Positions 4,845 through 53,797 of a DNA stretch of 64,000 nt are shown in pieces. The DNA lies in sequence record KY608965.1; one strand, 5' to 3'. Below the pieces are notes generated by a model. The model searched no databases. It was not told the DNA's origin and worked only from the letters and a program-made list of their open reading frames with translations. The translations under genes were made by a program, and so were the position numbers. Source of the stretch: Escherichia phage phiEC1. Numbering within the stretch: the first letter of the stretch is position 1; each line of letters opens with the position of its first letter.

Positions 4845-5231
4845 TTATAGATTCGGTTTATATGATTTAAATGTTTCGAATTCGCCTTTATTCATAAGAG
4901 CTTTGAATTCGTCAGGACGCATAGCTTTGTCGTCGATAATCCAATCATATACTGGTTTATGTGTTAGCAAATTATGATACTTCAAACCAATGTTTTCCAA
5001 GTTCTGAATCAGACTTGGGAGAATGTCAATTGCTATACGTCCAGGACCTACTGACTTCATACCGCGTGCAGTATAAAGCGTTATAGTATGCCCTGCATCA
5101 TACAGGGCATTAATGGCGGTCACCATTTCGACGTCTGGTTTGAAGTTCACATAATCACGATTGTTATTCCACTCTGTTATACAATCATCGACATCAAAAC
5201 AAAGATTAAGCATGTTTTCTACACGGTGCAT
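4845..5231 (-). CDS. HAD-superfamily phosphatase
   Basis: Motif I FDVDDCIT, motif II ITLYTAR, motif III HKP, motif IV WIIDDK; ATG at 5229-5231 overlaps upstream TAA. Confidence 0.65.
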   Translation of the reverse strand: MHRVENMLNLCFDVDDCITEWNNNRDYVNFKPDVEMVTAINALYDAGHTITLYTARGMKSVGPGRIAIDILPSLIQNLENIGLKYHNLLTHKPVYDWIIDDKAMRPDEFKALMNKGEFETFKSYKPNL

Positions 5232-6916
5232 TAGATTCGTTCCCATTGATGAGTGATATCGCCACCGATTGGACGATAGGAAACACCAGTTTCTTTATCA
5301 GTTAGTACCCATTTACCAGGATTTTTTGTAATCAGAGTAGCCGTTACAGGTTCTGCTACGTCATAACTAATAGAGCCGTCTTGAAGTACACGGCCCATGT
5401 TACGTAATTGCTTAGTCAGAAGTTCCATACCTTTATAATATGCGGCAACCGCTTTAAGTGGATTATTCTTGAAATAACCACCTAATGCAATCCAAATAAT
5501 TGCTACAGCCAAATGATGATACTCGTTAAACGAACTCATCTTTCCATATTTGTAAACTAATGGATTGATGTTAATAGTCACATTACAAGTTGTTTCATCA
5601 ATAGTAAACTGTCCCCAGGTCGGATTAGCATTGAATTCATCATAACCTGAAACAGCATAAAGCACTTTAGCTTCATCATACAATTTTGGCCCGTAAATCT
5701 TGGTTTCACCAAAATATCCACGAGGGTCGATAAACTTGACTTCGCCGTTATCAGTAATCATAGTATTACTGAAGTTTGGGTCACCGTGAATAACAGAGTA
5801 CTGTCCCTGAGAACGGTTATGATAACGAATAAGATGTTCTAAAGCTTGTTTCAACATTGGCTTCAGACGTCCAATCTTAGTGTAGTTCACGTGTGTGATT
5901 TTACCAAATGAATCAATCAATGGCTGAATGCTTTCACAACGATCAATAACTTTCGTATAGAACTCTTTAGTGAAATCACGGCGAACAGTTTCAGGACTTA
6001 CAAAATAAGTGTCTGTGCTGAATTTCAGTGCATCTAAAATTGCATCAACAATTTGTGGACGAGCAAGACTTGATTTGGATTTAATATATTCAAATGCCGG
6101 CTTACCTTTAATACGTTCCATTTCAAAATTATTTTCATTTACCGAAACTAACTGAGGAACTGAATCTGATTTCACTTTCAAATACCATGAAATCTCATCT
6201 TTTTGAAGAGCTCGACCTTGTTCGGTTAACGCGAATTTAGTTACAGTTTCTTCGCCAATTTCAACTGCATTAAAACTACGATTAAGTTCACGAACTTCAT
6301 GAGCTTTTTCAAGTTTAGGCATATCACCTAAATCAATTAGATTCATAAGCTCTGATTTATTGAATGCACTGCCGTAAAGGAATTCTACGAAATCACGTCC
6401 TTTGCAGTATTCGTGAATTTCCTCGTCAGTAGAACCCATGTAGAATTCCCAGTCTTTGAACTGATAAATTCCTACAACATTACCGCCTGTTGAACCTACG
6501 TTAGTGATATTTTCACCATCGAAATTATATCGACATTCATCACCCTTAACATAGATTGCGTTAACATTCCAAGACCATGAACCAAAATCAGGAATAATAT
6601 CACACCAGTTAACAATTACATTATGGCCATCTAAATCTTTGTATAATTTAGCAAGAGCATAAGCAGAACCATACGCTTCATCAACTGTACGAATAGTCAC
6701 ATTGAACCCTTCTTGCTCACAATAAGCTCGAACAGTTTCAGCAAATTTTGAATGAACTACTACAATAATTTCATCTGCGCCAAGGTCAGAATAAATTGTA
6801 TACAAATTGCTCAGAATAGTGTCTTGCTTATAGTTCACAAGAACTTTTGGAATATGGTGAGTAATTGGATATAAACGAGTTGCCAATCCAGCACCAAGAA
6901 TAACAGCTTTTTTCAT
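5231..6916 (-). CDS. bifunctional sugar-1-phosphate nucleotidyltransferase / APH-like anomeric sugar kinase
   Basis: N-terminus VILGAGLATRLYPIT (RmlA/GlmU-type G-x-G-T-R-L-x-P-x-T); C-terminus VIHGDPNFSN...FIDPRGYFG (aminoglycoside/choline-kinase-type catalytic loop); SD GAGGA upstream. Confidence 0.8.
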   Translation of the reverse strand: MKKAVILGAGLATRLYPITHHIPKVLVNYKQDTILSNLYTIYSDLGADEIIVVVHSKFAETVRAYCEQEGFNVTIRTVDEAYGSAYALAKLYKDLDGHNVIVNWCDIIPDFGSWSWNVNAIYVKGDECRYNFDGENITNVGSTGGNVVGIYQFKDWEFYMGSTDEEIHEYCKGRDFVEFLYGSAFNKSELMNLIDLGDMPKLEKAHEVRELNRSFNAVEIGEETVTKFALTEQGRALQKDEISWYLKVKSDSVPQLVSVNENNFEMERIKGKPAFEYIKSKSSLARPQIVDAILDALKFSTDTYFVSPETVRRDFTKEFYTKVIDRCESIQPLIDSFGKITHVNYTKIGRLKPMLKQALEHLIRYHNRSQGQYSVIHGDPNFSNTMITDNGEVKFIDPRGYFGETKIYGPKLYDEAKVLYAVSGYDEFNANPTWGQFTIDETTCNVTININPLVYKYGKMSSFNEYHHLAVAIIWIALGGYFKNNPLKAVAAYYKGMELLTKQLRNMGRVLQDGSISYDVAEPVTATLITKNPGKWVLTDKETGVSYRPIGGDITHQWERI

Positions 6917-6957
6917 GTTGAAGTCCTCATTGGTAAGTAGGTGTATTGTACACTATT

Positions 6958-7101
6958 CTAGTTAAAGCATTCATACTTTGCTTGTAGTCCAATCATAATC
7001 CATCCAATTACAAGTGTTGGAATCATTACTGGAGCCGTTAAGCTCCAGTAGATAGTCATGACAAGCATCAATAGTAAAAGTCCTATTGTTATTGCTTTCA
7101 T
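6958..7101 (-). CDS. small hydrophobic protein (47 aa), not in ORF track
   Basis: MKAITIGLLLLMLVMTIYWSLTAPVMIPTLVIGWIMIGLQAKYECFN; ATG overlaps the SIS-gene TGA (ATGA). Confidence 0.35.
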   Translation of the reverse strand: MKAITIGLLLLMLVMTIYWSLTAPVMIPTLVIGWIMIGLQAKYECFN

Positions 7102-7733
7102 TGTTCGCCTCGTAACATGGCACCTAGTGCACCGCCTGGATGGAACTTAAGGAAGTCATTAGAGGTAAATCCACGTTCAGACGAAAGGTTGATAGCAAAC
7201 GTATCGATAAGCGCTAACAACAATGTAGTGGACATGGTCGGAGCCAGAGAATTCTCGTCAACCTCTACCGCGATACCGGTACAGAACGTATAATCAAAAA
7301 GAGCTTCGTATTCTTGCGGAATGTCAGGGTTACAATGTAACAGAATCTGTTTAACCTGAGGACGAATCATACGAAGATGTTTAGCAACACCTATCATTTC
7401 TTCAGTCTTACCAGAACGACTGATGTGAACTAATACATCATTGGGTGCAATAAATCCTGCATCCCCATGAGAATAATGCCCAGTGTTCAAGTACATACTC
7501 GGGATACCGAGTGAAGCAAAAGTCTCTGAAGCTTTAGTTGCGATATTAGCGTTCTTACCAACACCTGTAATAATTACACGACTTTCATAATTACTCAGTC
7601 CAGGGCGACGAAGAGTTTCAAGAATAACATTATATCGGGCAGAGTTTTGACTAATTACTTTAGCCATAGTGGCAAGAGATGAAGCTTGTTTTACGATTGC
7701 GTCAATAGCGATAGTGATTGGTGTAGTTTTCAT
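7098..7733 (-). CDS. SIS-domain sugar-phosphate isomerase, KdsD/GutQ-like arabinose-5-phosphate isomerase without CBS domains
   Basis: GVGKNANIATKASETFASLGIPS, HISRSGKTEE, LAPTMSTT, FHPGGALG match the KdsD SIS domain (GMGKSGHIG..., ISNSGES, LAPTSSTT, HPGGALG). Confidence 0.8.
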   Translation of the reverse strand: MKTTPITIAIDAIVKQASSLATMAKVISQNSARYNVILETLRRPGLSNYESRVIITGVGKNANIATKASETFASLGIPSMYLNTGHYSHGDAGFIAPNDVLVHISRSGKTEEMIGVAKHLRMIRPQVKQILLHCNPDIPQEYEALFDYTFCTGIAVEVDENSLAPTMSTTLLLALIDTFAINLSSERGFTSNDFLKFHPGGALGAMLRGEQ

Positions 7734-7773
7734 ATTTCTCTCATTTAATTAGTTGGCCGTCCTTGGCATTATA

Positions 7774-10485
7774 TCAAAAATCGAACATATCGAACAGAGA
7801 TGCTTTCTTCTCGTAATCGAGTTTCGCTGCTGATGTGAATCCTTCAAGTGGTTTAATAAATGTCTTCTCAAGGAGAACAGTGTAGTCCATCCAATGAAGT
7901 ACGTCGTCTTTAATTAAATCTGTGATTTCAGTACCAGAAGGCCATGCGATACATTTATCACCGAACGGGTTTCCATCACGTAAAGGCAGAACGTATACCT
8001 TTTCGCCTTCTACAACTTGTGGAGCATCAATATTACCTTTGATAGCCCGGTTATATGTCAGAATTCCACGAATATGGAACGGACATTTAGGACCAGGGAA
8101 TCCACCAACGTCATATTTAGCAATGTTATTCGCAGAAGATACCGACGCGATGCTAATATAATTCAATTGACGGAATTCTTTTTCAAACTCTTTAAAATAT
8201 TCTTGTAATGATTCTTCACCTTCTTGAAGCATACGACGAATACATTCTTTAAGAGCTTTCTGTACTGCTTTAGGGGTCGAAGATTTCTGAGTCTCTAGAC
8301 CCATGATTTTGAGTTTAGGCTCAGCGTAACGAGTACCTTCCATATCCCACACGTTTAATGCGTAACGTTTCTTACCAGTCCAGAATCCACCAATACCTTT
8401 AGAACCGAGCGGAGGACCAGCGATAGCTTCTCGGTCCATGAACATTAAGTGTTGTTTATTGTTCATGTATTCACACATTTCACGGAAACCTCTATCAATA
8501 GCTGGTTCCATACGTTCACGTGCAAACTTATCTAAGAAGTCTACCCAATGGTTGGTATCACGGAATTTAGATTCACCAACCTTATCAATAATTTTATCTG
8601 CAGATACATAAATGGAGTCTGTATCACCATATAGAACGAAAGCTTCACCTTCTGTACCACAAACTTCATTCAGATATTCATTAACTTTACGTTCAATCCA
8701 CTGTAAAGCCATTTGTCCAAATGTTGTGATTGCAGTAGCATTACGCAAATCATAATAACGGAACCAAACGTTGCCAAGTGCACCATAAAGTGAGTTGATA
8801 AGCAATTTACGGTTAATTTGTGCAGTCATACCTGCAACTTCAGTACGTTGAGCTCTAAACAACATTTCATTAAGAGATTTAGCAGACAACTTTTTAATCT
8901 TTTCTTTAATCTCGTCAGTGAAGTCGAAACGATAATCAACATCTAATGGTTCGTCAACAGAAAGATTAGGATTATGCAATGCCTCTTTAATTATTTCACC
9001 ATTACGTTGAGCCGCAAGCATGTAACCTTTATGTTCTTTACGTTGATTAAAGACCTTAGTGATTTCAGTTGGAACTACACCGTCACGGTCTTTATAATAC
9101 ATCATGCCGTTAGGAGAGCAACTGTACACATCTGAAGGACGTTCAGCGATTGCGTTAATATAATCATGCAGTGGAGCTACTTTAAACGTTCCTGCTATTG
9201 TTTCTGGGCTAATATTCACTTGGCGAATAATACTTGGATACAGAGATGTAAGGTCGAAACTCATTACATATTTGTATCGATTTGGAATAGGTTCCTTAAC
9301 AAAAGCGCCAGGATAAGGTTGAACCGGGTGAGAACGACCTTGTGGAATCACCTTGTTTTGTTCTTTAAGGCTATTAAAAATAATAGCATCCCATGTTTTA
9401 ATTGGGCTAAACACAGATTGAATCTGTATCTTAGCATAATAACCCATGTCCAAACTCAAGTTGATGAACTGACGCTTAGCATCAATTTGCAATACACGAT
9501 ACACGTCGATAATGTTATAAGAAATATATCGTTGGTGATTGCTTTCACGAAGCTTAGAAATAGGACCGTCATATTTCAGTTTACCGACATTCAATTCAAA
9601 TTCTGAAATGTAATCCAGAGAATACGACGGTTGATTGGTAAAAGAGAATTTTTTGTAAAGGTCAATGTAATCAAGAACAGAGATACCGAACAATGTAATG
9701 ATTTCACGAGAACCATACATGTTTTCGATAACTTTAACACGAGTTTTACGATGTGGTGATAAACGTTTCGCAGTAGATTCGCCAAAAATATTCTTGATTC
9801 GGTTATACACATATGGAATATCAAATGACTCAACGTTCCATCCAGTCAAAATGACAGGAGTTTTCTGTTGCCAGAAGTTGAGATATTCCATCAACAATTC
9901 TTTTTCGTTATCGAACGGCATATAAATGATTTTATCAATAATTTCGGATGGAACTTCATCACCACCTTGTTCTTGAAGCTTAGCTGCAATTTCGATAGAC
10001 CATTCTTCTACATTACCATATGGAGAATTCAATAGATCAAATACGTAGAACCTGTCGTCAATTGAGTCATAATGGGTGATAGCATCAATCGGATGTTTTG
10101 CTTGTGACGGCTCAGGAAACCCATCCGGAGATGTTACTTCGATGTCGAAGTTAGCCACACGAATTTTTGTATGGTCGTATTTGATTTCATAGTTATAAGT
10201 GTCAGACAAATACGCTAATTTGAAATCGTCCATGCCAAGTGCTTCAAGACCGATATCTTCCATGCGTTTAATCCATTGAGACGCATCACGCATATTAGCG
10301 AACAACTTACGAGTACACGGCTTACCGTAGATATCGAAATATTTCGTAGCTTGACTTTCCGGACAATGAGCAAACAGTGATGGTTTATATTCTACTTCAC
10401 GAGTACGTTCACGGCCATTAGAATCGATGTAACGTTCAAAAATTGAATCACCAATCTGTTCAACCGTTAAGTAAAATTCTTTCAT
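7774..10485 (-). CDS. 43: DNA polymerase (family B) gp43
   Basis: 903 aa; MKEFYLTVEQIGDSIFERYIDSNGRERTREVEYKPSLFAH...; exo and pol motifs (FDIEV, YGDTDS); T4 synteny. Confidence 0.97.
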   Translation of the reverse strand: MKEFYLTVEQIGDSIFERYIDSNGRERTREVEYKPSLFAHCPESQATKYFDIYGKPCTRKLFANMRDASQWIKRMEDIGLEALGMDDFKLAYLSDTYNYEIKYDHTKIRVANFDIEVTSPDGFPEPSQAKHPIDAITHYDSIDDRFYVFDLLNSPYGNVEEWSIEIAAKLQEQGGDEVPSEIIDKIIYMPFDNEKELLMEYLNFWQQKTPVILTGWNVESFDIPYVYNRIKNIFGESTAKRLSPHRKTRVKVIENMYGSREIITLFGISVLDYIDLYKKFSFTNQPSYSLDYISEFELNVGKLKYDGPISKLRESNHQRYISYNIIDVYRVLQIDAKRQFINLSLDMGYYAKIQIQSVFSPIKTWDAIIFNSLKEQNKVIPQGRSHPVQPYPGAFVKEPIPNRYKYVMSFDLTSLYPSIIRQVNISPETIAGTFKVAPLHDYINAIAERPSDVYSCSPNGMMYYKDRDGVVPTEITKVFNQRKEHKGYMLAAQRNGEIIKEALHNPNLSVDEPLDVDYRFDFTDEIKEKIKKLSAKSLNEMLFRAQRTEVAGMTAQINRKLLINSLYGALGNVWFRYYDLRNATAITTFGQMALQWIERKVNEYLNEVCGTEGEAFVLYGDTDSIYVSADKIIDKVGESKFRDTNHWVDFLDKFARERMEPAIDRGFREMCEYMNNKQHLMFMDREAIAGPPLGSKGIGGFWTGKKRYALNVWDMEGTRYAEPKLKIMGLETQKSSTPKAVQKALKECIRRMLQEGEESLQEYFKEFEKEFRQLNYISIASVSSANNIAKYDVGGFPGPKCPFHIRGILTYNRAIKGNIDAPQVVEGEKVYVLPLRDGNPFGDKCIAWPSGTEITDLIKDDVLHWMDYTVLLEKTFIKPLEGFTSAAKLDYEKKASLFDMFDF

Positions 10486-19664: not shown

Positions 19665-20041
19665 TTTACCGCCTTAACAATTTTCAAGTCAGCGAATTTT
19701 TTCTTACGTTGATTTTTCATACGACGGATAGTTTTTTCAGAGATTTCATGTTTCTGATAAGCTTTAGATTCAACACCAAATGCAGCAACGTCAAATTCAG
19801 AAAGAATATATTGTACTAGAATTTCACGAATAGAATTACGTCCAATTTTCTGGTCGTGTTTTTGCATGATTTCATAAAGACGGAATTCCCAGGCGTCAAG
19901 AACTTGAGGAGTAACAATATTGCCAGATTCCAGAAGAGCAACAACTTTATCGAAAGCGAAAGAATTAACTACGTTTTTGATTTTAGTAGACATATTATTT
20001 TCCTCGGTTATTTTATTATCCAACGAGAGAATTATACTCAT
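19661..20041 (-). CDS. hypothetical protein
   Basis: 126-aa ORF. Confidence 0.5.
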   Translation of the reverse strand: MSIILSLDNKITEENNMSTKIKNVVNSFAFDKVVALLESGNIVTPQVLDAWEFRLYEIMQKHDQKIGRNSIREILVQYILSEFDVAAFGVESKAYQKHEISEKTIRRMKNQRKKKFADLKIVKAVK

Positions 20042-20059
20042 CTCTCAAGAGTTTGTATA

Positions 20060-26038: not shown

Positions 26039-26395
26039 TTAACCCCGGAGTTTATTGAGCTCTTCATAATCAATCCAGGATTCTAGTCCGGATGGCAGGT
26101 CACATTCAATGTTCCACAGAAGCTCTTCAATGGCTTGCAGGCGATTATATTCTTCAACGGTAATGGTAACCATTGGTGCAACCGGTTCTGCCTTTTTAAC
26201 CATTATATCGTTCATCAGGACGTAAAGGTCATCACGAACGACGGTGTCGTTCCAACCCCATGATTTGGCTTCGTAAGCTAATGATGAAGGGAGCACATTT
26301 AAAACTTCAATAATAGTTGGAGCATCAGGACCAAGTTCATTGGCACAAACTTCGTATACATCTTGGAAATCTTTAAGATTTAATGAATATGTCAT
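26039..26395 (-). CDS. hypothetical protein
   Basis: 118-aa ORF. Confidence 0.5.
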   Translation of the reverse strand: MTYSLNLKDFQDVYEVCANELGPDAPTIIEVLNVLPSSLAYEAKSWGWNDTVVRDDLYVLMNDIMVKKAEPVAPMVTITVEEYNRLQAIEELLWNIECDLPSGLESWIDYEELNKLRG

Positions 26396-26655
26396 TTAAA
26401 ATATTCTCGTAGTTGGTCAAAGCCACCAATCGAAGTTCCATCAGGAGCAAACACTTGGGGCATAGTCAATCCGACTTGTGATTCACGTCCAAGCTTAACC
26501 AGAAGCTCAGCAATTTTCTCATCATCAAAAACACCTTTTTCTGGCATAACATTAATGAATTCAAATGGCTGTTTCTTAACAGTCAGCAATCGTTTCGCAT
26601 TATCACAATAAATGCATTTATGAATAGTAGAGTCGTACCCGTACACTTTAAACAT
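26392..26655 (-). CDS. nrdC: thioredoxin/glutaredoxin NrdC
   Basis: MFKVYGYDSTIHKCIYCDNAKRLL... matches T4 NrdC; SD AAGGAAA before ATG at 26655. Confidence 0.9.
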   Translation of the reverse strand: MFKVYGYDSTIHKCIYCDNAKRLLTVKKQPFEFINVMPEKGVFDDEKIAELLVKLGRESQVGLTMPQVFAPDGTSIGGFDQLREYFK

Positions 26656-27061
26656 TATTTTTCCTTTCATCGATTAAATATGCAATGCCAAATACAATAC
26701 ATGTAATAAAACCTGTGATACAGATAGAAACCAACAACACTGTACCAAAGAACCAAATCAAGTTATCTTTAGTAGTTTGTTTGATATCCATCTCACGAAT
26801 TTCTATAGCTATCGTATCACCTTTATTCAGAAGCGTATAAAACGATGGTGATACATGCCTGTCAAAAACTCGTCCTTGCTCATCTTTATAGACTGCAATA
26901 AATTCTAATTTAGAATATTTTCCTGTAGATTGACCTGAAATTAATTCCACTACCTCCACAGGAATTACTTTAGTTTCCATGTAAGTATTCTGGCTGTTCC
27001 AAATGAATGGAATAATAGCAAAAACTAAAGCTGCGATAAAACAACGAAGGCTATATCTCAT
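26648..27061 (-). CDS. hypothetical membrane protein
   Basis: 137 aa, N- and C-terminal TM segments. Confidence 0.5.
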   Translation of the reverse strand: MRYSLRCFIAALVFAIIPFIWNSQNTYMETKVIPVEVVELISGQSTGKYSKLEFIAVYKDEQGRVFDRHVSPSFYTLLNKGDTIAIEIREMDIKQTTKDNLIWFFGTVLLVSICITGFITCIVFGIAYLIDERKNNV

Positions 27062-27366
27062 TATAATGTTCTCTCAAATTTGTGGAAGCATTTACGGCAT
27101 TTCAATTTCAAGTTATCAGTGGTCCAGTTAACCAGTTGGACTTGGATAGTTCCACATTCCGGGCATGGATGTTTTGCTGCCGATTTGGCAGCATTTTCAC
27201 GTCGTTCAACCATTTTCATTATTTCGTTCCATGCCGGAGGAACGAACTCTTCTTCACCATGAATTTTATCTCGCTGAACAAATTCAATCTTTGAACTATC
27301 ATCAATAAACTTAACTAAGCCATGATTAGTGCTCATATCAATATCCTCTAGAAGACGTAGGTTCAT
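27061..27366 (-). CDS. hypothetical Zn-ribbon protein
   Basis: 101 aa; CPECG...CRKC. Confidence 0.5.
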   Translation of the reverse strand: MNLRLLEDIDMSTNHGLVKFIDDSSKIEFVQRDKIHGEEEFVPPAWNEIMKMVERRENAAKSAAKHPCPECGTIQVQLVNWTTDNLKLKCRKCFHKFERTL

Positions 27367-28316
27367 TATAACACCTCAATGGCATTTCGTAAACCGTCCG
27401 CTTTCGCATTCAGAGCTTTTAACGATTTAGTTTGTTCTGCAATCTGGGCTTCGACTTCTTTCAGACGAGATTTGAGGTACTCACGTTCTTCGCTCAAGTT
27501 GTCAACTTTTTCTACTTTAGGTTCTTTAATAGTCTTAAGTTTATACTCGTTAGGGTTCTTCAACTTAATTCGGGTACGAGAACTATATAACATTGATCCG
27601 TTATCTTCGGATTCGTCGAACGTTTCAACAACATCCATAGTCTCTAACAATGTAATAAGTTTATAAGACAACGAACGAATAGTTTTGTTGTGCTTATTAA
27701 TTTCTTCGGCTTTCATGGTACCGAGATTACGTGAGTAGTAATAAGGAACCTGGATATCAATTGATAATGATGCGTTACCATTACCAGTTGGTTTGAATAC
27801 TGCAGTAACCCAATCTTTAACATGAACTTTATTTGTACGGCCATCACCGCCAGTGAATAATTTACGAGAATGTTTAAAAAGCATATTCACTTGTTTATTG
27901 AATTCACAAGCAAATTTATCAGCAAATTTAGTTTCAGGAATGGTAGATAACCAATCAGCCAAATGAGTCTTTTTAACATCATTAACAATAGTGAATTCAA
28001 CCAAATCGGTTTTAGATGTCACAGATTTAATAAAGCTCGGCTTCATAAAGTTTTTGATGTTATCACGAGCTACAGTAGAAGATAATAAACGAGAACGTTT
28101 GAACCATTGAAGCAGGGTCCCTAATGAATGAGAATACGCATTCTGAGTATCTTTACAGATATGATTTTCTTGGCCTGTGTATGTACCAAAATCGCGAAGA
28201 ATACCACTTACTACATCTCGGTGTGGAACATCAAATCCTAGTGCACCAACAGCGCGCTGGGCATGAACGTTAGCGATAAGACCGGCAAAGTATTCAATGT
28301 AATGTGAACGTGTCAT
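27366..28316 (-). CDS. hypothetical protein with C-terminal coiled coil
   Basis: 316 aa; own early promoter and SD. Confidence 0.6.
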   Translation of the reverse strand: MTRSHYIEYFAGLIANVHAQRAVGALGFDVPHRDVVSGILRDFGTYTGQENHICKDTQNAYSHSLGTLLQWFKRSRLLSSTVARDNIKNFMKPSFIKSVTSKTDLVEFTIVNDVKKTHLADWLSTIPETKFADKFACEFNKQVNMLFKHSRKLFTGGDGRTNKVHVKDWVTAVFKPTGNGNASLSIDIQVPYYYSRNLGTMKAEEINKHNKTIRSLSYKLITLLETMDVVETFDESEDNGSMLYSSRTRIKLKNPNEYKLKTIKEPKVEKVDNLSEEREYLKSRLKEVEAQIAEQTKSLKALNAKADGLRNAIEVL

Positions 28317-28344
28317 AATATTTTCCTCTCGTTAAGATAGATTC

Positions 28345-28373
28345 ATTATACTCAAACCATCCTTGGTTGTAAA
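28345..28373 (-). promoter_or_regulatory. T4-type early promoter (TTTACA-17-TATAAT)
   Basis: Transcribed strand GTTTACAACCAAGGATGGTTTGAGTATAAT upstream of 27366-28316. Confidence 0.55.
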
Positions 28374-28378
28374 CTGAT

Positions 28379-29335
28379 TTATGATTTTAATGCATTCATT
28401 GCGTTAAAAAGTTTAGAGTACTGCAACTGGAGATTGGTCACCACCTGTTGAGCATCACGAAGCTTAGCTTGTGCCTTATCAAGTTCAGCAGACAGTTGGT
28501 CTACAGTAGCCTTGATTTGATTGTAATGATAATCTTCAGCCGGAAGAAGGTCATTAGAAACATTTAGTTTTACTGCCGACAGTTTGCACACATTTGGCGA
28601 ACCTTTAAACATACCAGATTGTGCTGGAGAATATGCGCCTAGAACCTCTGCATTACCGACTGGTGTTGCTGTAATATTGCCTTCAAACAATGCATTTTCC
28701 TTTTTAAGATTTTGATAGTATTCAGAGTCTTTGTGCCACCATGGTGCAGGAACCTTTTTACCAATAGATACACGAGCCTGGATAGCGATATGGCCCTTAT
28801 TCTTGATAACGTCGATAATATTAAGCTCACGAGAATAAATTGCTTTAATCTCGTGGATATTATCACCTAAAACTTCCAACGCTTGATGGAATACACGAGC
28901 AACGTTATCATTCTTAGGTTTATACGTAAGAGTAAACTCATTCTCACTGATAACCATGATTTCTAACTTATCGTAAGTATATTTCAAATGTTTCATGTTA
29001 ATTGCTTGAGGACGAATACGAGAAGCAATGGCCATCAAATTGTTAAGGTTATTTCTGAACTGTTTAGCAAAATATTGTCCATAACCGCCAATACAAAAAT
29101 TACGAAGTTTCTGTTTGGCCAGTAAACGGCTGAACTCACCATTTTTAATGAACTCTTTAACGGGTGTGTTAGTAACACATTCAAATTGAGTAAACTTACG
29201 AGAATTAATCCCATAATACGAACAGATTTCCTCAATCTCTTCAGGAGTCTTTACAGGCATACGGATAGGATTAGGTCCTGGAGTATATGCGTTCGAGGTA
29301 AATTCTTTGATAAGTTCTCTACGTGTAATAGCCAT
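28379..29335 (-). CDS. hypothetical protein with C-terminal coiled coil
   Basis: 318 aa. Confidence 0.6.
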   Translation of the reverse strand: MAITRRELIKEFTSNAYTPGPNPIRMPVKTPEEIEEICSYYGINSRKFTQFECVTNTPVKEFIKNGEFSRLLAKQKLRNFCIGGYGQYFAKQFRNNLNNLMAIASRIRPQAINMKHLKYTYDKLEIMVISENEFTLTYKPKNDNVARVFHQALEVLGDNIHEIKAIYSRELNIIDVIKNKGHIAIQARVSIGKKVPAPWWHKDSEYYQNLKKENALFEGNITATPVGNAEVLGAYSPAQSGMFKGSPNVCKLSAVKLNVSNDLLPAEDYHYNQIKATVDQLSAELDKAQAKLRDAQQVVTNLQLQYSKLFNAMNALKS

Positions 29336-29361
29336 TTTATATTCCTCATGTTGAAAAATTT

Positions 29362-29390
29362 ATTATACTCCAACCATCCTTGGTTGTACA
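29362..29390 (-). promoter_or_regulatory. T4-type early promoter, near-copy of the 28345 cassette
   Basis: TGTACAACCAAGGATGGTTGGAGTATAAT. Confidence 0.5.
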
Positions 29391-30386
29391 TCATTCCTTA
29401 AGAAGTTTTACTACTTGAATAAGATTAGCTCGTTCTGTTTTATTTTTACCGTTTAAGCCTGCTAATCGTGAGATTTCATCGTCAGTCTGTTGAATAGTTA
29501 CATTAAGTTCGTTAATCAAAGCTTCAAAGTATTTGATTTGCTCAGCATGTTTTGATTCAAATTTCTGAACCGGAATAACGTCTTGGTTTAGTTCGTCAAT
29601 AAGGTCTTTAAGAGCATCTTCTTGGTTGATATCGTATTCAACTTCTTTTATTTCTTCAACGAGCTCGTCTTTATATCTAACGTCTTTTAGTCCTGGAGCT
29701 GGTCCTGAAATCTCTTCTTTAAGAGTACAAACATACCCAATACGGTATCCAATGCCGTCTCGCTTGATATCAACTTCGTCGATAAATCCACAATGTTTAA
29801 GACCAGAGCCGATTATGTCAAAATATCCTTGACGTCGTCCTTCAAACGTTACACGAACTACTAAGACAGTTTTGCCACCGACCTTTTGAAGCTCACATTT
29901 ATAAAAGTTTGTTGAACCTGAATAACGTGGATGAGTTTTAAAGTTCATCTGACGATCTAAGCCCATTTGTAAACGTGCTGTTACAGCCATAAAACGTGTT
30001 TGGTTCTCGTTAAGATGAGCAACGATCCATTTCAAAGGCATTTTACACTGTTCACGTCCGAACAAATCAGTACGTCCTAGATTACGCAGGATGTTGTTAG
30101 AGTTAATCATCGACAGAACGTTAAGTTTATTCAGCGCGCTGAAGATTCCATCAGCCATTGATTTTCCATAACCTTTACACGCTTTAATAAGCGCTCGCGG
30201 CAGATTAGTATAGATTTCAGACGGCATATGAAAATCAAATTTACTAGTCAGTAATTGATGAACTTGGATAGCAATTTGCTCATAATTAAGTGCTCTGCGA
30301 TCGTTATGGTCTTTAAACCACACTTTAATCTGTGAAGCACATAAACCGTTAATTTCATGTTTTACCGCATCAGATGTAATGCTCAT
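29391..30386 (-). CDS. hypothetical protein with C-terminal coiled coil
   Basis: 331 aa. Confidence 0.6.
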   Translation of the reverse strand: MSITSDAVKHEINGLCASQIKVWFKDHNDRRALNYEQIAIQVHQLLTSKFDFHMPSEIYTNLPRALIKACKGYGKSMADGIFSALNKLNVLSMINSNNILRNLGRTDLFGREQCKMPLKWIVAHLNENQTRFMAVTARLQMGLDRQMNFKTHPRYSGSTNFYKCELQKVGGKTVLVVRVTFEGRRQGYFDIIGSGLKHCGFIDEVDIKRDGIGYRIGYVCTLKEEISGPAPGLKDVRYKDELVEEIKEVEYDINQEDALKDLIDELNQDVIPVQKFESKHAEQIKYFEALINELNVTIQQTDDEISRLAGLNGKNKTERANLIQVVKLLKE

Positions 30387-30448
30387 AACTATTTCCTCAG
30401 ATTGAATTGGAACTCAAAACCATTATAACCCGTCCTTGGGTAAAGCGT

Positions 30449-30976
30449 TTATGCGTGAACCGTCTTTAAACGTTCTTCAAATTTCCTAAGAGTACTAATA
30501 CGTTCTGCTTTCTGTTTTGTGTAGTTTGCAATACGTTCTGAAGTGAGAGCGTATCGTTCGTTTACTGTTTCTTTCATGAAGTCAGGGATTTCACGAGAAG
30601 CTTTAATTTCATCAAACTTATCAAGTACTGCCTGATCTTCAGCGATTAAATTTTCGTACATCTCGATATCTTTCTTGATGAAGTCGATATCTTCCTGGGT
30701 TACTTTGGATAAACGAGATGCTTTATCCTTTTTGTACTGCTCGTTAGTTTCACGAGACCAGAATAATGTACGTTTTTTGTTAGTGTTTTTGTAGACTTCC
30801 ACAATTCCAACTGAATCGATGATAACAATCCAATTCCAGCGAGATTTGAAAATCTGACCTCCATCCACGGTAATCTCGTTACCATAAGCAACATCGTTAA
30901 AGAACTTGCTTTGTGCTTCAGATTTAAATTTACCGTCGTTATAATTTACCAGGTTGAAAATATCTTTAGCGTTCAT
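30449..30976 (-). CDS. hypothetical protein
   Basis: 175 aa; SD GGAGG. Confidence 0.55.
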   Translation of the reverse strand: MNAKDIFNLVNYNDGKFKSEAQSKFFNDVAYGNEITVDGGQIFKSRWNWIVIIDSVGIVEVYKNTNKKRTLFWSRETNEQYKKDKASRLSKVTQEDIDFIKKDIEMYENLIAEDQAVLDKFDEIKASREIPDFMKETVNERYALTSERIANYTKQKAERISTLRKFEERLKTVHA

Positions 30977-30994
30977 GTTTTACCTCCAGTAGTT

Positions 30995-31031
30995 GATAGG
31001 TCTATAATAACATAACCATAGACCTTGTAAA
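30995..31031 (-). promoter_or_regulatory. early promoter cassette with inverted repeat (PeSL-like)
   Basis: GTTTACA-17-TATTAT with GGTCTAT/ATAGACC inverted repeat around -10. Confidence 0.5.
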
Positions 31032-31034
31032 CAA

Positions 31035-31322
31035 CTAAAAGAAACTTTTTTCGGTATTTTTTCCACTGAACCAAACAGACTTCGGGATTTTTTGTAATTT
31101 TTCAGATTTAAGTTTCTCTTCCTGTTCTTTCTTATATACACTCTTGTCGTACTGGAGCATCTCTATGGCATTCTTTTGCAAACGATCTAAGGTAATTAAG
31201 GCTTTAGTTTTTCCTTTCAAGGAAGAGTCCTGGCGAACCTCCTCGCTATATTGCATTGTAGAACTAACCATACGATGAGCATAGAGTTCGACTGCAGCTT
31301 TAATTTTTTGCATAAAATCCAT
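31035..31322 (-). CDS. hypothetical protein
   Basis: 95-aa ORF. Confidence 0.45.
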   Translation of the reverse strand: MDFMQKIKAAVELYAHRMVSSTMQYSEEVRQDSSLKGKTKALITLDRLQKNAIEMLQYDKSVYKKEQEEKLKSEKLQKIPKSVWFSGKNTEKSFF

Positions 31323-32441: not shown

Positions 32442-32460
32442 TTTATTCTCCTCTTGTTTT

Positions 32461-32497
32461 GATAGGTCTATAATAACATATCCTAAAAGCATGTACA
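32461..32497 (-). promoter_or_regulatory. early promoter cassette (PeSL-like)
   Basis: GTGTACA-17-ATTATAGACCTATC. Confidence 0.45.
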
Positions 32498-32514
32498 CTA
32501 CTTTTTAAAAATAT

Positions 32515-32549: not shown

Positions 32550-32816
32550 TTACTTATCGCACTTAGCAACATAATTAGGCATATCACAGAATACGGAGCG
32601 TGTAACTACTCGACCCTTTGACCATGCTTCAGTTGCTTGTCCGGCTGTGCTATTAATATAGCTTGATTTAATGTTCTCAATACCCTGAGAATGTGATGCA
32701 TTTACCGAACCGTTGGAAGGTGCAGAAGACTGGTTACCACCAGCTCCTGTACCTATGGTAGCACCAACAGAGAATGCCATCATTACTGCGAATAAACCAA
32801 TTGCTAATTTTTTCAT
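32550..32816 (-). CDS. small secreted protein (signal peptide)
   Basis: MKKLAIGLFAVMMAFSVGA... then Gly/Ser-rich. Confidence 0.55.
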   Translation of the reverse strand: MKKLAIGLFAVMMAFSVGATIGTGAGGNQSSAPSNGSVNASHSQGIENIKSSYINSTAGQATEAWSKGRVVTRSVFCDMPNYVAKCDK

Positions 32817-35150: not shown

Positions 35151-35177
35151 GATAGGACTACTATAACATAGTCCTAC
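35151..35177 (-). repeat. palindromic early-promoter element GATAGGACTACTATAACATAGTCCTA(T/C), copy 1
   Basis: Inverted repeat centred on -10 TATAGT; GTAAAC (-35) at 35183-35188 on + strand. Confidence 0.55.
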
Positions 35178-35188
35178 CAAGATGTAAA

Positions 35189-45959: not shown

Positions 45960-45985
45960 ATAGGACTACTATAACATAGTCCTAT
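45960..45985 (-). repeat. palindromic early-promoter element, copy 2
   Basis: ATAGGACTACTATAACATAGTCCTAT; GTAAAC at 45992-45997. Confidence 0.55.
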
Positions 45986-46009
45986 AATTGGGTAAACAGT
46001 TTTGTGAAG

Positions 46010-47250: not shown

Positions 47251-47277
47251 GATAGGACTACTATAACATAGCCCTAT
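47251..47277 (-). repeat. palindromic early-promoter element, copy 3 (one mismatch)
   Basis: GATAGGACTACTATAACATAGCCCTATC; GTAAAC at 47285-47290. Confidence 0.5.
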
Positions 47278-47293
47278 CTTGTTGTAAACTGTT

Positions 47294-50047: not shown

Positions 50048-50102
50048 TTGGTGGTTTATTATCCAATGAGAGCATTATACTCTGCTCTCAAGAGTTTGTA
50101 AA

Positions 50103-50560: not shown

Positions 50561-50593
50561 GTTGATAAGTTTATAGTATCACCGTCCTTGGTG
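50561..50593 (-). promoter_or_regulatory. early promoter cassette
   Basis: ATGTACAAGCACCAAGGACGGTGATACTATAAACTTATC. Confidence 0.4.
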
Positions 50594-53755: not shown

Positions 53756-53783
53756 GATAGGACTACTATAACATAGTCCTATC
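53756..53783 (-). repeat. palindromic early-promoter element, copy 4
   Basis: GATAGGACTACTATAACATAGTCCTATC; GTAAAC at 53789-53794. Confidence 0.55.
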
Positions 53784-53797
53784 AGCATGTAAACTAC

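Follow-up and report, generated by a model that had tools for sequence, protein, structure and literature searches.

The 64,000-nucleotide (nt) stretch of Escherichia phage phiEC1 analysed here (KY608965.1; below, the window) carries three consecutive open reading frames (ORFs) of 316, 318 and 331 amino acids (aa) between positions 27366 and 30386 of the minus strand, exactly where a preliminary description of this DNA had placed them. They are not a new set of genes: they are the long-annotated nrdC.3, nrdC.5-like and nrdC.6-like early genes of T-even phages. Our profile comparisons show that the encoded sequences are remote paralogues, and that NrdC.3, NrdC.4, NrdC.5 and NrdC.6 form one superfamily. 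The middle gene, ORF2, is gained and lost naturally through recombination between the repeated promoters that flank it. On balance we favour the view that the superfamily consists of early, self-associating inhibitor or decoy proteins, each acting against a different host immune protein.

The NrdC.3–NrdC.6 superfamily

The window phage is a T4-like Mosigvirus, whose region 27000–30500 is 97% identical to that of phages PhAPEC2 and AV111 and has 512 matching phage records in the phage collection; all genes of this region lie on the minus strand. ORF1 (27366–28316; 316 aa) is the orthologue of T4 NrdC.3 (56% identity across 316 residues, E 2e-118) and occupies the syntenic position directly upstream of nrdC.2; it belongs to phrog_1435 and its homologues carry the precomputed assignment PF26897. 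ORF2 (28379–29335; 318 aa) is separated from ORF1 by 62 nt and is a diverged homologue of T4 NrdC.5 (26% identity, E 5e-12). Both match the DUF7235 (PF23882) hidden Markov model (HMM), a profile of 307 positions with a gathering cut-off of 30 bits: ORF2 with 393.2 bits (residues 14–317 on profile positions 1–307) and T4 NrdC.5 with 420.6 bits. The counterpart of ORF2 in the RB69 record is likewise named NrdC.5, and ORF2 shows no similarity to T4 NrdC.4. ORF3 (29391–30386; 331 aa), 55 nt away from ORF2, is a homologue of T4 NrdC.6 (29% identity over 270 residues, E 4e-19), syntenic on the nrdC.8 side of the block, and belongs to phrog_2257, with homologues that carry the precomputed PF26899. 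A Pfam scan found no match to DUF7235 in ORF1 or ORF3, and PHROGs lists the function of all three families as unknown. The gene order agrees with that of T4 (nrdC, nrdC.1,.2,.3,.4,.5,.6,.7,.8,.9,.10,.11), which possesses four paralogues (NrdC.3–.6), whereas the window phage possesses three and lacks NrdC.4.

The kinship of the three proteins escapes pairwise alignment: BLASTP comparisons among ORF1, ORF2 and ORF3 returned no significant similarity, and the relation is seen only with profile methods. The statement in the preliminary description that their N-terminal domains differ is thus correct at the BLASTP level and fails at the profile level, where these regions are remote homologues. By eye, ORF1–3 share an N-terminal TRxxYI and two longer motifs, one that resembles FKxSRLLSx7(I/L)xNF near residue 70 and one that resembles FxxNxxxLLxxAxRLxxGDxR approximately 50 residues further. 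With the conserved NrdC.10 gene as the anchor, 37 T4-like loci were gathered and T4 was added, and all ORFs between nrdC.10 and nrdC were clustered. Each lineage carries one to four genes of ~290–390 aa just before nrdC.2, which fall into many separate BLAST-level clusters (those of other T4-like loci are labelled below with k-names). Profile-profile comparison with hhalign connected NrdC.3 with NrdC.4 (probability 97.6%, E 3e-12), NrdC.6 with k83, a cluster of ~310–340-aa genes at the same position (94.7%), NrdC.5 with k83 (87%, E 4e-6, 227 columns), and k210 with k246, k246 with k137 and k137 with k214 (87–94%). When the profiles were merged, the NrdC.3/.4 group matched the NrdC.5/.6 group with a probability of 97.7% (E 2.1e-12, 218 columns). 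With the last 60 residues cut to exclude coiled-coil bias, the match was anchored on both motifs at 96.3% (E 1.6e-9, 148 columns), and the controls, namely seven unrelated families from the same loci and reversed profiles, all gave probabilities below 2% and E above 0.02.

Iterative HMM searches, for which the C-terminal 60 residues were cut from proteins longer than 200 aa, gave a similar picture when started from the NrdC.6 or the NrdC.3 family: the other families were recruited, together with nothing unrelated and only from among the genes of the locus. Started from the NrdC.5/ORF2 family, the search recruited nothing outside that family at E 1e-3. In an alignment that includes bridging sequences both motifs line up, as does a C-terminal QRxKLxxALxxLK. 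A MAFFT alignment of a restricted sequence set misaligned the first motif and was therefore set aside for structure prediction.

The heptad-rich C-termini reported in the preliminary description are confirmed for all three proteins by a heptad score (a crude in-house measure, not COILS or MARCOIL), which peaks at residues ~270–316 in ORF1, 266–318 in ORF2 and 278–311 in ORF3, with peak values reached in at most 1 of 200 shuffles. On the DNA, the predicted coiled coils correspond to 27369–27509 in ORF1 (residues ~270–316), 28382–28540 in ORF2 (~266–318) and 29394–29555 in ORF3 (~278–330, with a break at GLNGKNK). For ORF1 and ORF2, AlphaFold2 likewise predicts a single long C-terminal helix, at residues 275–315 (predicted local distance difference test, pLDDT, 79–90) and 265–317 (pLDDT 62–78), respectively. 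The last 50 residues are also better conserved than the rest of each protein (66 vs 55% in ORF1, 44 vs 24% in ORF2, 60 vs 27% in ORF3), and a search of the Protein Data Bank (PDB) with the superfamily profile found coiled-coil chains alone (GCN4, Lpp, BST2), through this segment. Most likely the C-terminal helix mediates self-association as a coiled coil.

Beyond such generic coiled coils, no relatives emerged when the PDB sequences were searched with each family, T4 NrdC.5 or the superfamily profile, and for the N-terminal part the searches found no solved structure or annotated family that resembles it. The AlphaFold2 models, built on alignments of 19 sequences for ORF2 (all at least 82% identical) and 30 sequences for ORF1 (54–93% identical), are of low confidence; the order of their elements is broadly alike (initial helices, then three strands, one helix, two more strands and, at the C-terminus, the long helix; in ORF2 an extra helix, residues 205–220, comes after the last strand), which is consistent with homology and does not prove it. 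Foldseek searches of BFVD with both models were uninformative: they returned the own orthologue through the sequence term, with a template modelling (TM) score below 0.3, and weak matches to other T4-like proteins of 320–370 aa. An NCBIfam search of the ORFs gave no match, and a hit of the PADLOC Type I methyltransferase model to residues 203–298 of ORF1 (E 0.0029, 14 bits) was regarded as noise.

Two observations concern other genes of this locus. In the T4 reference sequence (locus L001, NC_000866), nrdC.6 encodes 275 aa and is frameshifted near its 3' end relative to its 295-aa relatives; in the stretch 9997–10100 (minus strand), made up of this 3' end and the annotated 70-nt gap before nrdC.5, the conserved C-terminus (ISIQQYDDEIFRLSGLSSKAKSEREKLIKIVDLLKS) is still encoded in another frame, which runs through the gap. 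The explanation is either a real loss of the coiled-coil end from T4 NrdC.6 or a mistake in the reference sequence. A conserved gene of 256–284 aa (cluster k21), carried by many T4-like lineages, lies between nrdC.9 and the superfamily gene in loci L007, L015, L017, L018, L026, L031 and others; in these phages it stands beside a single superfamily member, and in some it is split into two ORFs. Profile comparisons detected no relation between k21 and the superfamily.

The three proteins have diverged far more than their neighbours. To their T4 counterparts ORF1, ORF2 and ORF3 are 56%, 26% and 29% identical, in contrast to 79% for NrdC.11, 77% for NrdC.10, 83% for NrdC.8 and 90% for both NrdC and gp49. 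In the phage collection, ORF1 falls into allele classes of at least 90%, ~75% and ~55% identity, and ORF3 into classes of at least 95% or ~32%; 587 phage records match ORF3 below 60% identity as NrdC.6-type proteins, and among the matches listed most are 29–33% identical. Only Mosigvirus-like phages carry the ORF2 allele type: of 144 matching records, 132 are at least 80% identical to it and the others are barely significant, and a search of 1.84 billion representative proteins with the ORF2 alignment gathered two clusters only, with no bridging sequences. Among close relatives the ratio of nonsynonymous to synonymous substitution rates (dN/dS) is 0.02–0.22, with ORF1 and ORF2 above most neighbours (mostly 0.02–0.10, occasionally to 0.14), therefore these are real genes under constraint. 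The idea of a diversifying family, put forward in the preliminary description, is upheld by the deep paralogy and by a divergence far above that of the neighbours, but not by the close relatives, which are under purifying selection. It looks as if the diversity arose not by rapid point mutation but by the replacement of alleles that are old and have diverged deeply.

Promoter cassettes and the natural indel of ORF2

Almost identical early promoters had been noted ahead of the first two ORFs, and they do agree at 27 of 29 positions. In the intergenic region 28317–28378 upstream of ORF1, cassette 1 (TTTACAACCAAGGATGGTTTGAGTATAAT, 28373–28345, minus strand) consists of a -35 box TTTACA (28373–28368), a 17-nt spacer and a -10 box TATAAT (28350–28345), with GAGAGGA as the ribosome-binding site ahead of the ORF1 ATG; its spacer contains the inverted repeat AACCA-AGGA-TGGTT, with CCAAGGATGG at 28366–28357. 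Cassette 2 (TGTACAACCAAGGATGGTTGGAGTATAAT, 29390–29362, minus strand), in the intergenic region 29336–29390 upstream of ORF2, has TGTACA (29390–29385), directly adjoining the stop codon of ORF3, a 17-nt spacer with CCAAGGATGG at 29383–29374, TATAAT (29367–29362) and, ahead of the ORF2 ATG, GAGGA as the ribosome-binding site. A 26-nt core common to both cassettes occurs exactly twice in the window (0.00 expected from 100 shuffles). When the spacers of the 20 T4-type promoter-like sites of the window were compared, these two, identical at 16 of 17 positions, ranked at the top of the 190 pairs (mean 5.3 of 17).

Upstream of ORF3, the third promoter is a deleted version, as had been proposed. This degenerate cassette 3 (TTTACCCAAGGACGGGTTATAAT, 30422–30444, minus strand) retains the CCAAGGACGG core, and its hexamers TTTACC and TATAAT are just 11 nt (CAAGGACGGGT) apart, so that activity as a sigma-70 promoter is improbable. 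A different T4-like lineage (loci L005, L006 and L008) has the same short form ahead of its NrdC.6-type genes. ORF3, which like ORF1 and ORF2 is preceded by a GAGG-type ribosome-binding site, is probably transcribed by read-through from the early promoter of nrdC.8 (31004–31031, minus strand; TTTACA, 16 nt, TATTAT), which a strong inverted repeat overlaps, since its own spacer is only 11 nt long and a minus-strand scan found no terminator-like site between the nrdC.8 promoter and ORF3. Thus, the suggestion that the three genes are individually transcribed fits the workable spacing at ORF1 and ORF2 and does not fit ORF3.

Five copies of the core CCAAGGAYGG were counted in the window, where 0.04 would be expected, and all five are on the minus (coding) strand. 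Inverted-repeat variants centred on AAGGAYG are present in the promoters upstream of T4 nrdC.3 (GCCAAGGATGGC) and nrdC.4 (CCACAAGGATGTGG, with one mismatch to the strict motif), as well as upstream of NrdC.4-type and NrdC.6-type genes of another lineage. We considered the inverted repeat of the spacer as a terminator or an unusually stable hairpin and rejected both: the stem has 5–6 bp and no U-tract, its energy is shuffle-like, and the terminator scan was blank.

A comparison across related phages, suggested in the preliminary description, revealed that the presence of these genes varies. We joined window positions 28100–28373 to 29391–29660, the junction predicted for a genome devoid of ORF2, and queried the phage collection with it. 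The junction is matched in one piece by 21 records (~19 distinct phages), including p000v, PTE-Eco05, G2285, AV109, AV114, FL18, WFL6982 and F2; the full query is covered at 96–97.6% identity in 20 of them, and in the remaining one, ESCO47, 84% of it at 90%. In p000v the NrdC.6-type gene adjoins the NrdC.3-type gene, and the left half of the lone cassette between them is that of ORF2 (TGTACA...TTGGAG) and the right half that of ORF1; therefore the crossover took place inside the shared GAGTATAAT. Elsewhere in the locus, a natural deletion in phage ACG-C40 (locus L040, NC_019399, 4305–4713) fuses the first ~70 codons of nrdC.5 to the last ~70 codons of nrdC.3, so that nrdC.4 is gone entirely and nrdC.5 and nrdC.3 for the most part, and gene content between nrdC.10 and nrdC varies widely among T4-like loci.

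This arrangement matches the published concept of promoter-early stem-loop (PeSL) cassettes of T4-type phages (Arbiol et al. 2010, PMC2839356; Comeau et al. 2014, PMC4122927), and the 21 records without ORF2 represent a PeSL-type indel. As in the PeSL system, short conserved cassettes, in which an early promoter precedes a Shine-Dalgarno sequence and the start ATG, lie between non-essential ORFs of a hyperplastic region; they agree with the T4/PST-type consensus TTTACW-N17-TAYWAT, and they flank an ORF that is present or absent in close relatives. At ORF1 and ORF2, though not at ORF3 with its 11-nt spacer, a sigma-70-type early promoter with a ~17-nt spacer stands ahead of the Shine-Dalgarno sequence and start codon. 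The crossover lies within the cassette, between the spacer and the end of the -10 box; published PeSL mini-circles have their junctions nearby, in the stretch that separates the -10 box from the ATG or Shine-Dalgarno sequence. The two systems differ in that here the inverted repeat (xCCA-AGGA-TGGx) is within the promoter spacer and not upstream of the promoter.

Proposed function and alternative explanations

We suggest the following scenario. Right after infection, host sigma-70 RNA polymerase would transcribe ORF2 and ORF1 from T4-type early promoters (TTTACA/TGTACA, 17 nt, TATAAT), and ORF3 would be read through from the nrdC.8 promoter. In each product, the helical N-terminal part with the two conserved motifs would be followed by a small alpha/beta region and a variable linker; the C-terminus would be an amphipathic helix of ~45–50 residues, which would most likely drive self-association as a coiled coil. 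Such proteins would probably counter host immune proteins as stoichiometric inhibitors or decoys; every paralogue and every allele would be fitted to a target of its own, at which it is aimed by the variable body set on the conserved core and coiled coil. The cassettes that flank ORF2 would serve as direct repeats, between which homologous recombination could remove or install ORF2 as a unit, in a PeSL-type shuffling whose outcome is visible in the natural junctions. The gene identities, the paralogy, the pattern of divergence, the DUF7235 membership and the indel junctions are established by the analysis, whereas oligomerisation, direct binding, the targets and the read-through into ORF3 are all inferred in this scenario.

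The precedent comes from T4. A plasmid-borne copy of T4 nrdC.5, an uncharacterised early gene, restores the infection of dsr1-carrying E. coli by a T4 deletion mutant; dsr1 is a SIR2-domain defence gene from ECOR17 (Srikant, Guegler and Laub 2022, PMC9391042). T4 nrdC.1, a gene of the same block, inhibits Septu (preprint 10.1101/2025.11.20.689424), a genome-reduced T4 without nrdC.1–6 is viable (PMC9825161), and DSR1 is still termed poorly characterised in a 2026 paper. ORF2 resembles T4 NrdC.5 in its full-length DUF7235 match, similar size, C-terminal coiled coil, genome block and dispensability, hence an action like that against Dsr1, demonstrated for T4, may be supposed here by analogy. The pattern of host-takeover or anti-defence genes, seen in these ORFs in the preliminary description, agrees with their dispensability and variable presence and with the T4 NrdC.5 precedent, although the low identity of ORF2 to T4 NrdC.5 limits how far that precedent may be carried over; a counter-defence family is plausible.

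Another phage protein, DSAD1, was reported by Garb and colleagues in 2022 to neutralise DSR2, a defence-associated sirtuin, by binding to it. It is much smaller, comes from Bacillus phages and has a different target, and it is taken here as a functional analogy for how NrdC.5-type proteins might act.

Several points weigh against a counter-defence role. ORF2 is only 26% identical to T4 NrdC.5, and its target may not be Dsr1. We found no paper on the function of NrdC.3, NrdC.4 or NrdC.6, or on the mechanism of NrdC.5. No measurable gene-wide positive selection was found in close relatives, where selection is purifying instead. The AlphaFold2 models are poor, with a mean pLDDT of 43 for ORF2 and 49 for ORF1. 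As for the cassettes, the inverted repeat of the spacer is no more stable than shuffled sequences (z 0.21, -1.91 and +1.22) and is not the terminator stem-loop of classical PeSLs, and repeated early-promoter subtypes are common in the window, so the repeat need not be special to this family.

It could be argued that the three genes encode early proteins of host takeover or physiology that are not directed against dedicated immune systems but might, for example, bind the nucleoid, RNA polymerase, a protease or metabolic proteins of the host and so improve growth in particular hosts. Such a role would suit early, dispensable and variable genes that lie next to pin, which encodes a Lon protease inhibitor (Inhibitor_I24 match), and to the nucleotide-metabolism genes nrdC and nrdD, and a defence target is documented for just one member of the superfamily. 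We nevertheless consider it unlikely, because the sole experimental data, on that member and on the adjacent nrdC.1, point to counter-defence, and because presence or absence in near-identical phages and the replacement of whole alleles are typical of arms-race genes. The same variable presence could be read as that of neutral or selfish passenger ORFs that ride on promoter cassettes and are spread by PeSL-type recombination without benefit to the phage: ORF2 is missing from ~19 otherwise near-identical phages, the T4 nrdC.1–6 block can be deleted (PMC9825161), and the ORF2 type is very narrow, with its two clusters among 1.84 billion representative proteins. Passengers would hardly be expected to show the dN/dS of 0.02–0.22, which indicates purifying selection, or to keep the motifs and the coiled coil across very divergent phages, and for T4 nrdC.5 a host-range benefit has been demonstrated (PMC9391042); we regard this explanation as very improbable.

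The product name "thioredoxin", borne by such genes in several phage records, would imply housekeeping proteins of a thioredoxin-like kind or of nucleotide metabolism. This reading is effectively refuted: ORF1–3 have no thioredoxin or glutaredoxin match in Pfam, whereas the true NrdC of the window (26392–26670) matches Glutaredoxin, and the genes are dispensable and absent in many relatives. In AV111 (OR352941, locus L002) the label is applied to all genes from nrdC.2 to nrdC.11, and we reject it; it looks like an error that has spread through many T-even records from positional gene names.

Returning to the inhibitors or decoys of host immunity that we favour, a bolder version may be formulated, which we put forward as a doubtful speculation: NrdC.3–.6 would represent one modular inhibitor scaffold, in which variable surfaces are mounted on a conserved helical core and a conserved coiled-coil helix for oligomerisation; it would have been multiplied in T-even phages by tandem duplication, with each paralogue and allele directed against a different immune protein and Dsr1 as the first known target. 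CCAAGGAYGG, which precedes family members in several lineages, would then be a dedicated recombination or regulatory site that keeps the genes exchangeable as cassettes.

The genes themselves, the PeSL idea and the anti-Dsr1 role of T4 NrdC.5 were already known. In the literature that we searched we found no prior statement of NrdC.3–.6 paralogy; new with respect to it are the findings that NrdC.3–.6 and their counterparts belong to a single superfamily, that its coiled-coil end is conserved, and that the presence or absence of an NrdC.5-type gene in Mosigviruses is bounded exactly by the cassettes. T-even phages, which also serve in therapy, have been studied better than any other lytic phages, yet approximately half of their genes have no known function. 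With one superfamily member proven to act in counter-defence, "hypothetical" genes in hundreds of coliphage genomes become candidate determinants of host range. The near-identical natural phages with and without ORF2 provide ready pairs for finding the target, and their clean junctions within the promoter repeat document natural cassette-mediated gene gain and loss outside the phages in which PeSLs were first described.

Further cassettes and genes in the window

In this phage, promoter cassettes are habitually repeated throughout the genome. Further copies of CCAAGGACGG lie on the minus strand at 7757–7766, just after a TATAAT behind the stop codon of gene 43 (DNA polymerase) and ahead of a gene for a SIS-domain protein, and at 50582–50591, within the spacer of a TGTACA-N17-TACTAT promoter. 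Two additional subfamilies of early-promoter-like sites, both with near-identical and partly palindromic spacers, were found on the same strand: the pair 20031–20059 and 50074–50102, 30 kb apart (...AAACTCTTGAGAG..GAGTATAAT, with 15 of 17 spacer positions shared), and the sites 35160–35188, 45968–45996, 47260–47288 and 53765–53793 (...TAGGACTATGTTATAGT, with 12–14 of 17 shared). Yet another repeated cassette (atgttattatagacctatcaa) is located upstream of nrdC.8 (30977–31040, minus strand) and nrdC.10 (32442–32500, minus strand). Its nrdC.8 copy lies in the strong inverted repeat AGGTCTATGG...ATAGACCT (-18.7 kcal/mol, z -3.3), which overlaps the -10 box, and variants of this cassette recur in T4 and in other lineages.

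An ORF of 88 aa (32550–32816, minus strand) between nrdC.11 and nrdC.10 encodes a signal-peptide-like N-terminus (MKKLAIGLFAVMMAFSVGA); it has no Pfam match, and T4 is empty at the same position. Directly downstream of the DNA polymerase gene, at 5231–7733 on the minus strand, two proteins are encoded: the SIS-domain protein, of 211 aa, and another of 561 aa, whose N-terminal part is a nucleotidyl-transferase domain. These two may be sugar-nucleotide genes for the unusual sugar modification of DNA reported for RB69-like phages.

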